A stretch of 64,000 nt of DNA from contig CALVJR010000001.1 in assembly GCA_944332295.1 (NCBI GenBank), positions 64,585 through 128,584 on the forward strand, in the 5' to 3' direction. The notes beneath the pieces are model-generated. The model had not been told where the DNA came from. It saw only the letters and a list, made by a program, of their open reading frames with translations, and did not search any database. The first letter of the stretch is position 1. Each line of letters begins with the position of its first letter. The translations under genes were made by a program, and so were the position numbers. This document shows positions 53,729-57,261 of this stretch, piece by piece. This stretch comes from an uncultured Bacilli bacterium (GTDB lineage Bacteria > Bacillota_I > Bacilli_A > RF39 > UBA660).

Positions 53729-54290
53729 AGCAGTATTAGAAGGATTACTATTTGTAGTAGGAGAAGATGGATTAACACTAGATCAAATAGAAGAAGTATT
53801 AGAATTAAAAGAAGAAGAAGTAAAAGAGCTAGTAAATGAATTAAAACATAGCTATGAAAATGAAGATAGAGGTCTTAGAATTGATTTTTTAGGAAATAGA
53901 TTGAAATTAACTACAAAATTTGAACACAGAGAATATTATCAAAAACTACTAGAAAATCCAGAAACCAATATGCTAAGTCAAGCAGCACTAGAAACCCTAG
54001 CAATCATTGCCTATAATGAACCTATTACTAGAATGCAAATCGATAAACTAAGAGGAGTAGGAAGTAGTCAAATGATTAGAAAATTAGTAGCGAAAGGCTT
54101 AGTAAAAGAATCCGGTAGAAGTGATTTACCAGGAAGACCTATTCTGTATGAGACAACAAATGACTTTCTTGACTACTTTGGATTAAGTAATATTAAAGAA
54201 TTACCAGACATGGAAAAATATATTGAAGCAAGTGAAGAAGAAATAAAAGAAGAAAAAGATTTGTATACTTCAAAATATAAAGAAGAATAA
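53718..54290 (+). CDS. scpB: Segregation and condensation protein B
   Basis: LEGLLFVVGEDGLTLDQI...LS.AALETLAIIAYNEPITR..I...RGV.S..........GLV...GR.D.PGRP.LY.TT..FL..FGL. Overlaps the scpA 3' end. Confidence 0.93.
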   Translation: MKNKAVLEGLLFVVGEDGLTLDQIEEVLELKEEEVKELVNELKHSYENEDRGLRIDFLGNRLKLTTKFEHREYYQKLLENPETNMLSQAALETLAIIAYNEPITRMQIDKLRGVGSSQMIRKLVAKGLVKESGRSDLPGRPILYETTNDFLDYFGLSNIKELPDMEKYIEASEEEIKEEKDLYTSKYKEE

Positions 54291-54346
54291 AAGAGCTGCG
54301 TTTTTTTGCAGTTCTTTAAAAAAATACTAGTAATTAAAAAAATATA

Positions 54347-54355
54347 TGGTATAAT
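54347..54355 (+). promoter_or_regulatory. Extended -10 element (TGgTATAAT) upstream of tRNA-Leu
   Basis: TGGTATAAT lies 13 nt upstream of the tRNA 5' end. No good -35 element. Confidence 0.5.
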
Positions 54356-54367
54356 TTAATATGTAAT

Positions 54368-54454
54368 GCCTGCGTGGCGGAATTGGTAGACGCGCTGGAC
54401 TCAAAATCCAGTGTTAGCGATAACGTGTCGGTTCGAGTCCGACCGCAGGCACCA
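54368..54454 (+). tRNA. tRNA-Leu (anticodon CAA), type II with long variable arm, CCA encoded
   Basis: Acceptor GCCTGCG/CGCAGGC; anticodon arm CTGGA-CTCAAAA-TCCAG; 16-nt variable arm; T arm GTCGG-TTCGAGT-CCGAC; 3' ACCA. Confidence 0.95.
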
Positions 54455-54466
54455 TAAAGAAATGAT

Positions 54467-54492
54467 ACGAACCCAATAAAGGTTCGTTTTTT
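54467..54492 (+). terminator. Terminator after tRNA-Leu
   Basis: ACGAACC-loop-GGTTCGT hairpin followed by T6. Confidence 0.8.
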
Positions 54493-54533
54493 CATGTAAT
54501 TATGTTATAATAGAAAACATTGGATGTGATAGC

Positions 54534-54926
54534 ATGTCAAAAATTGATGATATTAATAGGTTAATTATTGAAAGTAAATTATCTGGAGAAATATTTACAA
54601 AAGAAATTAGTGATGGACATCATACTTTTGGCGAATTGTATAGACATAGAATTATTTTATTTTGTACTTTATGTAATTTACTACCTGAAATATCATGGAA
54701 ATCAAAAAAACATTTTGATGAAGAAAATGATCCGATGTTTAATGATAGCTTTATAGCAGGAATCAATACTCCAGAAGGAGTTGCTACTTATCATATTAAA
54801 TTGAAATATTGGGAAATGTTTAATATTCCAGAATTAGAAAGAGCTCCAAAATATGAACAATATGATTCGGATGATGTTATAGAAAGAGTATATTCGTTGT
54901 CAAAAATTAAAATCAATAATAGATAA
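54534..54926 (+). CDS. Hypothetical protein (orphan, phage-like small protein)
   Basis: 130-aa ORF (..DGHHTFGELYRHR..); no family recognised. First gene after the tRNA. Confidence 0.6.
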   Translation: MSKIDDINRLIIESKLSGEIFTKEISDGHHTFGELYRHRIILFCTLCNLLPEISWKSKKHFDEENDPMFNDSFIAGINTPEGVATYHIKLKYWEMFNIPELERAPKYEQYDSDDVIERVYSLSKIKINNR

Positions 54927-54985
54927 TTATAAGATAATTTAAAAAAATTTACTAATTTGATATAGAAATATATATCAATAGACTT

Positions 54986-55014
54986 TTGATAAAATTATAT
55001 AAATATGATATTAT
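54986..55014 (+). promoter_or_regulatory. Strong sigma-A-type promoter of candidate antitoxin sRNA
   Basis: TTGATA (54986-54991), 17-nt spacer, TATTAT (55009-55014) with TG at -15/-14. No ORF follows. Confidence 0.6.
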
Positions 55015-55020
55015 GAATAT

Positions 55021-55147
55021 GTCAAGGAGACTTGCATAAAATAAAGAGGGAACATTCAGTTTCGTCAAGTTGAATGTCTACCTAATAATTTGCCTTATGG
55101 CACTTATTCAGCGACACTTATTCAAGCGATTGAGTGTCATTTTTTTA
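55021..55147 (+). ncRNA. Candidate ~125-nt sRNA (type I antitoxin, antisense to the 3' end of a 30-codon toxin ORF)
   Basis: Bounded by the promoter above and an intrinsic terminator (GACACTTA...TGAGTGTC stem 55113-55138, then T7). No start codon or RBS-ORF inside. Internal hairpin 55052-55077. Confidence 0.45.
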
Positions 55148-55229
55148 TTACTACTATCATCATGATAAGGAGAAATAAAATGACAGTAATGAGCTTAAGA
55201 ACTTTTATAATAAAAGTCTTAGTTTTCAT
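55137..55229 (-). CDS. Candidate type I toxin: 30-aa hydrophobic peptide MKTKTFIIKVLKLITVILFLLIMMIVVIKK
   Basis: Not in the ORF track (<60 aa). GGAGG 10 nt upstream of the ATG. One TM helix flanked by Lys residues and ending in KK, like BsrG/TxpA/Fst-class toxins. The 3' end overlaps the convergent sRNA. Confidence 0.45.
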   Translation of the reverse strand: MKTKTFIIKVLKLITVILFLLIMMIVVIKK

Positions 55230-55364
55230 CTTTATCAAACCTCCGCTCTATAAAGATTAGAGGTAGACACTCAACAACTGATATTCCCTACAAAAAGTAT
55301 ACTATTGAATGTATTAGAAATATTTTATAACAAAATTTGTTATATTAGTGTTAGAATATTGTTA

Positions 55365-55505
55365 AAAAAATATTCATTATTGTAGAAATGTAGGATATAT
55401 TGTTACTGTACTGAGATGAGGAAACTGACTTAATCTTTAGTTCGGTATCTAACCCTTCAAGGCATCGCTAAGAAAGTAGTCGAGCTAACTGATTAAGCAT
55501 TTTTT
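55365..55505 (+). ncRNA. Candidate structured sRNA / leader of unknown class
   Basis: Extended -10 TGtTAGAAT (55349-55357), or TTGTTA-N18-TAGAAA ending 55388. Long imperfect hairpin: CTTAATC/GATTAAG plus TAGTTCG/CGAGCTA stems, 55429-55497, followed by T6. No ORF. Confidence 0.35.
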
Positions 55506-55736
55506 ATAAACTTCGTTTAATAATGTAAAATGATTTTATATTGTTTAATATAAAGAATGATTTATCTGATACAGAAAATAATATTTATAGGGTTACATAA
55601 GAAAAAATTGGAAAGTTACGTTTTCGAGATGATATCAAAAAAGACAAATACTCTAATCATTGTTTTTGACAATTGTAAGTGTCAAAAGTAAGAGTAAAAA
55701 AGATGAAAAATGAATTTCATATGAAGGAGGTTAATA

Positions 55737-56453
55737 ATGCCTAGTTGGTCAATTCATTTAGCGATTGCTAAAAAAGTAAATAGCAAATTAAATTTAAACA
55801 AGGATTTATTTTATTATGGAAATTTAATTCCTGATGTAGATGAAAACACTTTAATTGGAAGAGATGAAGCTCATTATGATAATCATAATATACCATTTCC
55901 AAATTGCCCAAAAGAATATATGATAGATACTAATCAATTCTTAAAAGATTATAAAGAAAAACTATCTAATCCTTTAATACTAGGGTATTATTGTCATCTG
56001 CTTACTGATAATTTTTATAATAATGAAATTTATTCTAATAACTGGGTTCAAGATGCTAACCATAATATAATTGGTATTAAGCTAAAGAACGGGAGAATTT
56101 TAAATATTGGTATAGAAGATAAAACAAGACAAAAACAAAAATATAAACATAAAGATTTTGAACTATATGGTAAATATTTATTTAAAGAAAATAAAGTTGA
56201 GTTGCCAAAAGATGACATAATAATAAAAAATAATATAAAGTATTTAAAAAATAGATTTATAAGCGATGAGTTGGTTGATTATAGATTGGATTACTTAAAC
56301 AATGAATTTGTTAAGTTTAATAAATTAAAATTTAATGAATTAGTTTTCAAACATAACTATAAATTATTTAGTAAAAACGAATTAGATAAAATATTTGATA
56401 ACTGTGTAGATATGATATTGACAAAAATGACTGAAGTTTACAATATAAAATAA
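55737..56453 (+). CDS. Hypothetical protein, possibly zinc-dependent phospholipase C-like hydrolase
   Basis: 238-aa ORF with a strong RBS (AAGGAGG). The N-terminal SWSIHLAIA...GNLIPD...H...HLLTD spacing is reminiscent of Zn-dependent PLC-fold proteins. Weak call. Confidence 0.55.
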   Translation: MPSWSIHLAIAKKVNSKLNLNKDLFYYGNLIPDVDENTLIGRDEAHYDNHNIPFPNCPKEYMIDTNQFLKDYKEKLSNPLILGYYCHLLTDNFYNNEIYSNNWVQDANHNIIGIKLKNGRILNIGIEDKTRQKQKYKHKDFELYGKYLFKENKVELPKDDIIIKNNIKYLKNRFISDELVDYRLDYLNNEFVKFNKLKFNELVFKHNYKLFSKNELDKIFDNCVDMILTKMTEVYNIK

Positions 56454-56660: not shown

Positions 56661-56682
56661 ATAAAAAATGGAGATGATAGAA

Positions 56683-56925
56683 ATGGAAGTAAGAATTCAA
56701 AAATGGGGAAATTCTTCTGGAATTAGAATTCCAAGTAGTATGTTAAAAAACTTAAATATTAAAACGAATGATATATTAAATATTAATCAAGAAGATGATA
56801 AAATAATAATTAGTGTTCCAAAGAAAAAAAAGATATCCCTAGAAGATAGATTTAAAGAGTATCATGGCAAAAACCTAGCGAAAGAATTTTCCTGGGACGA
56901 CAATATCGGGAGAGAAATATGGTAA
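56683..56925 (+). CDS. mazE: MazE/AbrB-SpoVT-type antitoxin
   Basis: MEVRIQKWGNSSGIRIPSSMLKNLNIKTNDIL... is the swapped-hairpin AbrB-type MazE N-terminus. Confidence 0.88.
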   Translation: MEVRIQKWGNSSGIRIPSSMLKNLNIKTNDILNINQEDDKIIISVPKKKKISLEDRFKEYHGKNLAKEFSWDDNIGREIW

Positions 56926-57261
56926 AAAAATATATTCCAAAACAAGGGGATATTGTTTTTTTTGGATTTTAATCCTACAATTGGTCATGAGCAAAAAGGA
57001 TTTAGACCAGCAGTGGTTATTAGTAACAATATTTTTAATATAAATACCAAAATGGTAATGGTATGTCCCATTACATCTAATGAAAAAGAATTTCCAACAC
57101 ATTATAAGCTAGAAGATACGAAAAAAGTACATGGTGCAGTCTTATGTGAGCATATAAGAAGTATAGATTACGAGATTAGAAATTTAAATTTTGTAGAAAA
57201 GCTAAGTAATAATGATTTTATAAGTATAATTACATTATTAAATGCATGTATTGAGGAATAA
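56919..57261 (+). pseudogene. mazF: MazF/PemK-family endoribonuclease toxin interrupted by a +1 frameshift in a T8 tract
   Basis: ATG 56919 (overlapping the mazE stop) reads MVKKYIPKQGDIVFFGF*. The rest (LDFNPTIGHEQKGFRPAVVISNN...) continues in the +1 frame. Removing one T from 56956-56963 restores a canonical MazF N-terminus. Confidence 0.8.

Follow-up and report, generated by a model that had tools for sequence, protein, structure and literature searches.

We asked whether a spacer between two genes, in the DNA of an uncultured Bacilli bacterium, encodes a type I toxin-antitoxin (TA) module. The spacer separates a WDGH-domain gene (54534-54926) from a phospholipase-C-like gene (55737-56453) and contains no long open reading frame (ORF). 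It is part of a stretch of 64,000 nucleotides, referred to here as the window. The region in question lies 0.5 kb downstream of a tRNA-Leu(CAA) gene (54368-54454). In a preliminary description, the minus strand was proposed to encode a 30-residue membrane peptide, and the plus strand a convergent small RNA (sRNA) antisense to the peptide mRNA. The sequence features listed there were all located at their stated coordinates, and the interpretation is supported in silico, after corrections to the toxin promoter and to the size of the fold-back. Having compared the locus with its relatives, we consider it probable that this is a chromosomal type I TA module, of a family not described before. It is also likely that the peptide and the antisense RNA would function as a pair. 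Our verdict, drawn from sequence comparison, is a new family within a known class. Coordinates of the predicted features are in Table 1.

The first relatives were obtained by looking up contigs that encode the two flanking proteins. This gave 20 loci, in which a stretch matching 54986-55464 recurs, with 71-98% identity, in differing gene neighbourhoods. Two of these loci (L001 and L003) have two matching stretches per contig. Species-representative genomes were also scanned, using a pattern that comprised the Shine-Dalgarno (SD) sequence, the right arm of an inverted repeat, and a conserved TTCCCT. In shuffles of the window, 0 matches to the SD/inverted-repeat pattern are expected. In other genomes, it matched at least 119 stretches, from at least about 113 assemblies. 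Among the matches listed, all assemblies are metagenome-assembled genomes (MAGs), with isolate names pointing mostly to the gut of rabbit, chicken, mouse, human, deer, or pig. The carriers are labelled uncultured Bacilli, Tenericutes, Mollicutes, Mycoplasmatota, Ca. Ventrenecus, or Anaeroplasma, and two are closed chromosomes, of 1.34 and 1.54 Mb. A few records on short contigs, labelled Muribaculaceae or Actinomycetes, we take to be binning errors.

Alignment of 96 distinct full-length copies revealed a conserved core, at 54984-55306. The 150 nearest neighbour proteins belong to 123 Pfam families, and the most recurrent family accounts for no more than 6 of the 150. Given these varied neighbours, and a lack of conservation to the right of 55306, the core of about 320 bp is a self-contained unit. 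Twelve loci have two copies of the module, several of them in tandem and 390-510 nt apart, and occasional copies are frameshifted. In 119 loci, 58 tRNA or tmRNA genes (Leu 22, Met 10, Thr 8) are located no more than 1.5 kb from the modules. For a genome of 1.3-1.5 Mb this proximity looks beyond chance, as an impression rather than against a computed expectation, and suggests that modules sit in variable, tRNA-proximal regions. A search of the window, using nhmmer with the family profile, found no second copy. We conclude that the predicted module is no local oddity, but belongs to a family that is dispersed and widespread.

Such a distribution could also mark a dispersed non-coding repeat, either similar to a miniature inverted-repeat transposable element or a structured intergenic sequence, with inverted repeats acting at the DNA level and an incidental ORF. 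The unit length of about 320 bp, the varied intergenic sites in many genomes, the several internal inverted repeats, and the frequent nearby tRNA genes all suit this explanation. We judge it very unlikely, for reasons that accumulate below. At the level of gene neighbourhood, the surroundings are heterogeneous. Furthermore, no transposase or integrase is among the recurrent neighbour families listed for the 150 proteins, which also include no recurrent partner protein.

The minus-strand ORF is present where the preliminary description placed it, behind GGAGG, and is kept in frame in relatives. It encodes 29-31 residues in 88 of the 96 copies. Frame-breaking changes, named previously as a sign that the ORF is not conserved, are confined to the remainder, which are truncated or extended via frameshifts or stop changes. 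The ORF is kept across two sequence types, despite their DNA being only about 71% identical. Even the most divergent copies (71% identity) retain a minus-strand ORF behind the same SD. This encodes MKKKDLLISFLILIIILLIVSLMILCIKK, a different sequence with the same design. The synonymous share of single-nucleotide codon differences is 43% for the 30-codon type, and 58% for the 29-codon type, compared with 22% expected at random. This equates to a 2-2.6 fold enrichment of synonymous changes. The 53 distinct 30-codon sequences require at least 32, 22, and 39 changes at codon positions 1, 2, and 3 respectively, so position 2 is least variable. In the 41 distinct 30-residue peptides, F6, L11, I17, L18, L20, K29, and K30 are invariant, and replacements elsewhere are conservative (K/R and I/V/L/M). 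The substitution pattern indicates that the small ORF is a gene under coding-type constraint. Such substitutions, together with the fixed ORF length and invariant SD, argue against an incidental ORF in a non-coding repeat. Coding by the plus strand (ORFs 55070-55165 and 55090-55260) was considered and rejected, because copies differ by indels of 10-24 nt in that stretch.

The encoded peptide is hydrophobic from F6 to I28, flanked by Lys, shorter than 60 residues, and predicted to form one membrane helix. These properties, kept in both sequence types, fit the type I membrane-toxin class. The peptide has a grand average of hydropathy of 1.77, an isoelectric point of 10.7, and a best 15-residue Kyte-Doolittle window of 3.49. 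In the preliminary description it was likened to BsrG, TxpA, and Fst. The likeness stands for the Lys-flanked single helix, but does not extend to sequence membership in Pfam or NCBIfam, where curated type I toxin models include Fst, Ldr, Hok/Gef, TisB, and Ibs. Briefly, Pfam had no family for the peptide at E up to 10, NCBIfam returned only noise (unrelated families, E above 3), and PHROGs and PADLOC had no family for it. A phmmer search with the 30-residue peptide, against 1.84 billion representatives (clustered at 50% identity from about 15 billion predicted proteins), found nothing. Similarly, blastn with the 807-bp spacer, and tblastn with the peptide, found nothing in phages or plasmids, though the low-complexity filter may hide a hydrophobic peptide. 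The pattern scan had 0 matches in 2.9 million viral contigs. Antitoxin families in Rfam include RatA, Fst antitoxin RNA II, Sok, Sib, IstR, SprA1AS, and SprF. For 54200-56000, on both strands, Rfam gave no match at E up to 10 besides tRNA-Leu and two chance hits, and none was found over modules in six related loci. The peptide strings occur in 0 papers, and our full-text literature search turned up no report of a type I system in Mollicutes, Tenericutes, or Erysipelotrichia.

A short ORF with a strong SD might instead act for a gene next to it, as a leader peptide or attenuator or by encoding a secreted peptide (bacteriocin or modulin). We find this scarcely credible. The ORF is directed into the convergent sRNA, away from any conserved gene downstream. 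Neighbours differ in nearly every genome, with no recurrent transporter, immunity, or modification gene. Furthermore, inspection of the peptide list found no leader or cleavage motif.

Evidence for an antisense RNA comes from the plus strand. The promoter reported in the preliminary description is present, scores 10 out of 12, with the TG, and is conserved. Across the 96 copies, TTG and TGnTAnnAT are at least 90% conserved and the spacer sequence is variable. Of 57 copies fitting a strict pattern, 56 have a spacer of 17 nt. The promoter boxes are retained in locus L011 despite an unrelated upstream flank. Conserved boxes, with variable spacers, again argue against a non-coding repeat. The proposed intrinsic terminator was also borne out. 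Its U-tract is the complement of the two final Lys codons of the putative toxin, and the hairpin (55113-55138) has 5 covarying pairs. Wobbles in this hairpin are G.U on the plus strand in 91 alignment cells, compared with 6 A.C (86 copies). Note that a simple terminator scan, with a loop limit of 8 nt, missed the hairpin, which was recovered by RNAalifold. A bidirectional terminator was rejected because the hairpin has C.A mismatches on the toxin strand.

Upstream of the terminator, the second sRNA hairpin covaries (C-G/U-A and U-A/C-G). In the same 86 copies, RNAalifold gave 180 G.U cells on the plus strand and 1 A.C. Wobble cells are nearly all G.U on the plus strand, and A.C on the other, which is evidence for selection of this hairpin and the terminator in a plus-strand RNA. 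The 5' hairpin (55024-55035) is supported by conservation and the fold; no covariation is available. The predicted sRNA folds with z = -3.6. From the conserved promoter and covarying terminator, the overlap with the toxin mRNA is predicted to be approximately 55036-55146 (about 110 nt). Hence, as claimed previously, the sRNA would be antisense to the stop codon and entire 3' untranslated region (UTR), and also to the last three sense codons. A convergent sRNA overlapping the toxin gene, which is a feature of the type I class, is therefore found in silico. Separately, this copy and a few relatives have about 14-24 nt of extra sRNA sequence (window 55088-55112), which most copies are without. 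The extra segment holds a small GCCUUAUGGC hairpin, and in it the terminator 5' arm is duplicated; there is a direct repeat of CACTTATTCA at 55101-10 and 55115-24.

Transcription of the putative toxin gene was previously ascribed, tentatively, to a box, TGtTATAAA (55332-55324). This copy has the box, in a stretch that the family as a whole does not conserve. We rejected it as the family promoter since sequence to the right of 55306 is unconserved, and some copies with an intact ORF (L001a, L003a, and L010) lose homology there. Most likely, transcription of the toxin gene is driven by the conserved TATA(A/C)T (55301-55296), which is TATAAT in 58 of the 96 copies and TATACT in 34. Either version occurs with AGGGAA in 93 of the 96, and the two are separated by 6-7 nt in 92. 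Most copies have TTGTTT or TTGTAT at 16-18 nt upstream of the -10 box. A 31-nt segment, AAAAAACAAGCGAACAGCTATATATTTATTA in other copies, supplies the toxin-strand TTGTTT. The segment is absent from the window copy (at about 55315/55316) and from L011.

The toxin mRNA is predicted to have its 5' and 3' ends paired. The preliminary description had noted an imperfect inverted repeat, of which 55069-83 with 55261-75 (15 nt, 93% complementary) stands, covaries, and has its wobbles on the toxin strand. The size of the pairing was revised, to 24 bp in three helix blocks running from 55288 to 55048 (55288-84/55052-48, 55280-76/55061-57, and 55275-62/55069-82). This closure joins the first 27 or so nucleotides of the predicted mRNA to its 3' end. 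Because the conserved -10 box is 6-7 nt before the closure, and a U-rich tail is right after it, we predict a transcript from about 55289 to 55036. Closure pairs are formed in 98.3% of cells (91 sequences), and the CAGUU/AACUG block is UAACU/AGUUA in the other sequence type. Seven pairs are changed on both sides, in 96 cells, compared with no more than 6 cells when partners are slid by 1-3 columns. Here, the wobbles favour the minus strand, with 134 G.U cells and 9 A.C. Hence, different helices have their wobbles on opposite strands, which indicates selection at the RNA, not DNA, level, and is not the behaviour of a non-coding repeat. Folding of both predicted RNAs, recommended in the preliminary description, also detected strong structure in the toxin-strand RNA (minimum free energy -80.1 kcal/mol, z = -7.95), and the closure persists in its centroid structure.

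The SD sequence is predicted to be sequestered locally. In 71 distinct 5' regions, the median unpaired probability of the SD is 0.011, compared with 0.29 if the upstream sequence is shuffled, and 86% of the pairing mass is with upstream nucleotides, not the 3' end. Alignment of copies revealed anti-SD/SD variants CCUCU/AGAGG, CCUCC/GGAGG, UCUC/GAGA, and CUUC/GAAG. The fold-back inhibition of hok and aapA1 mRNAs, to which the preliminary description appealed, is thus matched in part. The mRNA ends do pair, but the SD pairs with its upstream neighbours and not with a 3' element. Structure predicted to restrain translation (SD sequestration and the covarying 24-bp closure), another feature of the type I class, is found.

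A further link between the two RNAs is the motif GACAC[UC][UC]A. Its recurrence in the terminator stem, noticed previously as GACAC[TC][TC]A, is real and co-varies with the toxin 5' UTR. Specifically, the last six bases of the terminator 3' arm (55133-38) are identical to the toxin 5' UTR (55271 to 55266) in 89 of 92 copies. These bases are AGUGUC, AGUGCU, or AGUACU, and copies of the 29-residue type alone split into 14, 7, and 1 discordant. The terminator 5' arm (GACACUUA) is complementary to the toxin 5' UTR (UUGAGUGUC). Because of the six-base identity, the 5' UTR has two possible partners. It can pair in trans, with the 5' arm of the sRNA terminator, or in cis, with the complement of the 3' arm at its own stop codon, and covariation fits both. 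A second, partial, sRNA contact at the toxin 5' UTR is likely.

Is the peptide a toxin? The main rival explanation is a small membrane protein without toxicity, such as a regulator or accessory subunit, whose synthesis is under the control of a cis-antisense RNA and of mRNA folding. The support for the ORF and both RNAs comes from sequence, and many small membrane proteins are benign. We consider this rival unlikely. The module has no conserved protein partner or operon. Instead, it is dispersed, multi-copy, sometimes in tandem, and has decayed copies. Furthermore, a triple lock, of anti-SD hairpin, whole-transcript closure, and antisense RNA, is a hallmark of peptides whose synthesis must be prevented. 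Double copies, frameshifted copies, nearby tRNA genes, and a nearby MazEF pair resemble the habits of selfish elements, and we count them in favour of a TA module.

Several observations weigh against a TA module or its proposed control. First, no homology to any proven toxin or antitoxin was detected in the families and protein representatives searched. Second, sequence at the toxin -35 position of the window copy is AATATT and lacks the TTG, so weak transcription is possible. This copy may be weakly transcribed or may use the TGtTATAAA box. Third, the covariation derives largely from a few sequence types, and independent events are therefore fewer than the cell counts suggest. Fourth, binding of the sRNA should open the closure, not lock it. 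Finally, the modelled SD is mostly paired in full-length, sRNA-masked, and 3'-truncated mRNA, with no clear on-switch.

A chromosomal type I TA module would, nonetheless, have precedents, and the design appears to join three known themes. These are a 3'-overlapping antitoxin (bsrG/SR4 and txpA/RatA), 5'-3' closure (hok and aapA), and motif contact at the 5' region (Fst RNA I/RNA II). The Bacillus subtilis toxin TxpA has 59 residues. BsrG has 38 (PMC8309996), and the peptide here 30. As summarised in PMC3834814 and PMC8309996, bsrG/SR4 and txpA/RatA likewise have convergent genes, an sRNA antitoxin complementary to the 3' end of the toxin mRNA, a small hydrophobic peptide toxin, and an SD held in a helix that antitoxin binding at a distance can extend. 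In those systems the duplex is degraded by RNase III, according to the same summaries, which is only presumed here. The 3' target differs, being one strand of a 24-bp whole-mRNA closure; the abstract describing bsrG mentions no such closure (PMC3834814). The B. subtilis systems are in Bacillus prophage regions, whereas the carriers here are uncultured gut Bacilli with small genomes, and there is no sequence similarity to them in Pfam, NCBIfam, or Rfam.

For aapA/IsoA, of Helicobacter, the IsoA binding site is the 5' translation-initiation region. The enterobacterial hok/Sok antitoxin also acts there (PMC8309996). Both have full-length toxin mRNAs closed from 5' to 3', with local anti-SD hairpins, and both, as for the module here, exist in several chromosomal copies (PMC6733600). 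In these systems, the antitoxin acts only after 3' trimming removes the closure (PMC6733600). Unlike such 5'-acting antitoxins, the predicted antitoxin here is antisense to the closure 3' strand and 3' UTR. In addition, the SD of hok and aapA pairs with a distant 3' element, and the SD here with sequence just upstream of it. The hosts belong to another phylum, and Pfam and NCBIfam showed no sequence similarity.

The par locus of pAD1 in Enterococcus, with Fst RNA I and RNA II, also has convergent transcripts, a hydrophobic peptide of about 30 residues, and an SD in an intramolecular stem-loop (PMC8309996). Contact between those RNAs begins at the terminators and spreads to repeated 5' motifs (PMC8309996); here, GACAC[UC][UC]A links the terminator and 5' UTR. 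The terminator of the module is not a shared bidirectional one, and its overlap, of about 110 nt, includes the 3' UTR. Pfam holds an Fst model, and the peptide here matches no Pfam or NCBIfam family. SprA1/SprA1AS of Staphylococcus aureus is similar in having a 30-residue membrane peptide, and an antisense RNA that overlaps the 3' end and contacts the 5' translation region via a non-overlapping segment. To our knowledge, whole-transcript closure is not a feature of sprA1. Again, no similarity of the peptide here to any curated family was detected in Pfam or NCBIfam.

Table 1. Predicted features of the module (window coordinates)
Feature	Position	Strand	Details
Putative toxin ORF	55137-55229	-	30 aa, MKTKTFIIKVLKLITVILFLLIMMIVVIKK; stop TGA; reads 55229 to 55137
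Shine-Dalgarno GGAGG	55240-55244	-	10 nt before ATG; invariant in alignment of copies
Anti-SD ACCUCU	55259-55264	-	can pair with GGAGGU; overlaps 3' end of 5' fold-back arm
Toxin promoter -10 box	55296-55301	-	TATACT here, TATAAT in most copies; predicted start about 55289-88
Predicted toxin mRNA	55036-55289	-	about 254 nt, both ends predicted
Closure 5' strand	55262-55288	-	GGGAA 55288-84, CAGUU 55280-76, GUUGAGUGUCUACC 55275-62; RNAalifold
Closure 3' strand	55048-55082	-	GGUAGACAUUCAAC 55082-69, AACUG 55061-57, UUCCC 55052-48; RNAalifold
U-rich tail	55047-55036	-	directly after closure; about 90% conserved
sRNA promoter	54986-55014	+	-35 TTGATA 54986-91, 17-nt spacer, extended -10 TGaTATTAT 55006-14 (TATTAT 55009-14, TG 55006-07)
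Predicted antitoxin sRNA	55020-55146	+	about 127 nt; 5' end placed from -10 box, 3' end from terminator U-tract
sRNA 5' hairpin CAAG-GAGA-CUUG	55024-55035	+	GNRA-type loop, GAGA in this copy and GAAA in the majority; conservation about 90% or more; in minimum-free-energy fold
Second sRNA hairpin	55048-55083	+	GGG 55048-50 with CCU 55081-83; 55053-60 with 55069-76; RNAalifold
sRNA intrinsic terminator	55113-55146	+	11-bp stem 55113-23 with 55128-38, then A, U7 (55140-46)

These comparisons suggest how the module might operate. The minus-strand promoter would produce an mRNA for the Lys-flanked, single-helix membrane peptide, with its SD held in a local anti-SD hairpin. Once closed, the full-length mRNA is probably stable and poorly translated. 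The plus-strand promoter, which has an extended -10 and is near consensus, would generate an sRNA perfectly complementary to the 3' part of the mRNA, including the closure 3' strand. The loop of the second sRNA hairpin (55061-68) is complementary to an unpaired bulge in the predicted toxin mRNA, and first contact is probably between these elements. The duplex would then spread to about 110 bp and be cut, presumably by RNase III. The released 5' arm would extend or reinforce the anti-SD hairpin, as outlined for bsrG/SR4 (PMC3834814). If the sRNA runs out, the peptide would be made and the membrane damaged.

Taken jointly, these ideas describe an unrecognised type I TA family, in more than 100 species, with hybrid control. 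The antitoxin would be antisense to the closure 3' strand, a motif changing in step in three places would tie the terminator to the 5' UTR, and binding would set off cleavage and also divert the freed 5' arm to the anti-SD hairpin. Targeting of an antitoxin to the 3' strand of a whole-mRNA closure would be a control logic not described before. For this joint claim, we regard the case as evenly balanced.

Further to the right is a second conserved block (plus strand, 55385-55470), which about 20 loci share, 79-114 nt from the module and with constant orientation. Because of this block, our first comparison extended to 55464. Just upstream is a promoter-like TTCACT-17-TGaTATATT (about 55374-55405). 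The block has a conserved stretch of about 65 nt, ending in CAAGGCACCA, followed by unrelated sequence often ending in a terminator. In L022, it ends 5 nt before a tRNA gene. We found no Rfam match and no convincing consensus fold for the block, which could be another sRNA or a recombination boundary. With only about 20 loci, and no consensus fold, it was set aside as a part of the module.

The surroundings of the module have features of their own. In the window, a type II pair, comprising a MazE-like antitoxin and a PemK/MazF-like toxin (56668-57261), is 1.4 kb from the module. Related loci have Phd/YoeB and zeta-toxin-like genes nearby, which indicates a TA-rich, variable region. At least three neighbourhoods encode an identical WDGH-domain protein, with DnaB/DnaI-like genes preceding it in one, a DUF3048 gene in another, and ScpA/ScpB here. 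In each, its gene follows tRNA-Leu, and the module is usually next. The copy pairs of L001 (4443-4756 and 6693-7006) and L003 (4443-4752 and 6689-6997) bracket a segment of about 2 kb with an MCM/AAA ATPase gene. Ahead of the second copy, the tRNA-Leu 3' flank (window 54451-54545) is repeated, but without the WDGH gene. The arrangement suggests that module copies recombined, or that an insertion took place between them. Related MAG contigs also contain OLE RNA genes, scoring 412 and 161 bits, as well as a group II intron domain (L105, 5548-6162; L003, 1-285; L124, 2108-2183).

Type I toxins escape gene callers, and the peptide described here is missing from the protein representatives and every curated family tested. 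The carriers are uncultured gut Bacilli with reduced genomes, often named Tenericutes or Mollicutes in records, and are poorly known as hosts. About 100 natural variants are available, and their covariation maps two interacting RNAs base by base. The module is thus a tractable model for a 3'-binding antisense RNA acting on a 5'-3' closed mRNA. It is also a compact marker of variable, tRNA-proximal regions in carrier genomes. For organisms without genetic tools, it may be a candidate cassette for counter-selection or stabilisation.

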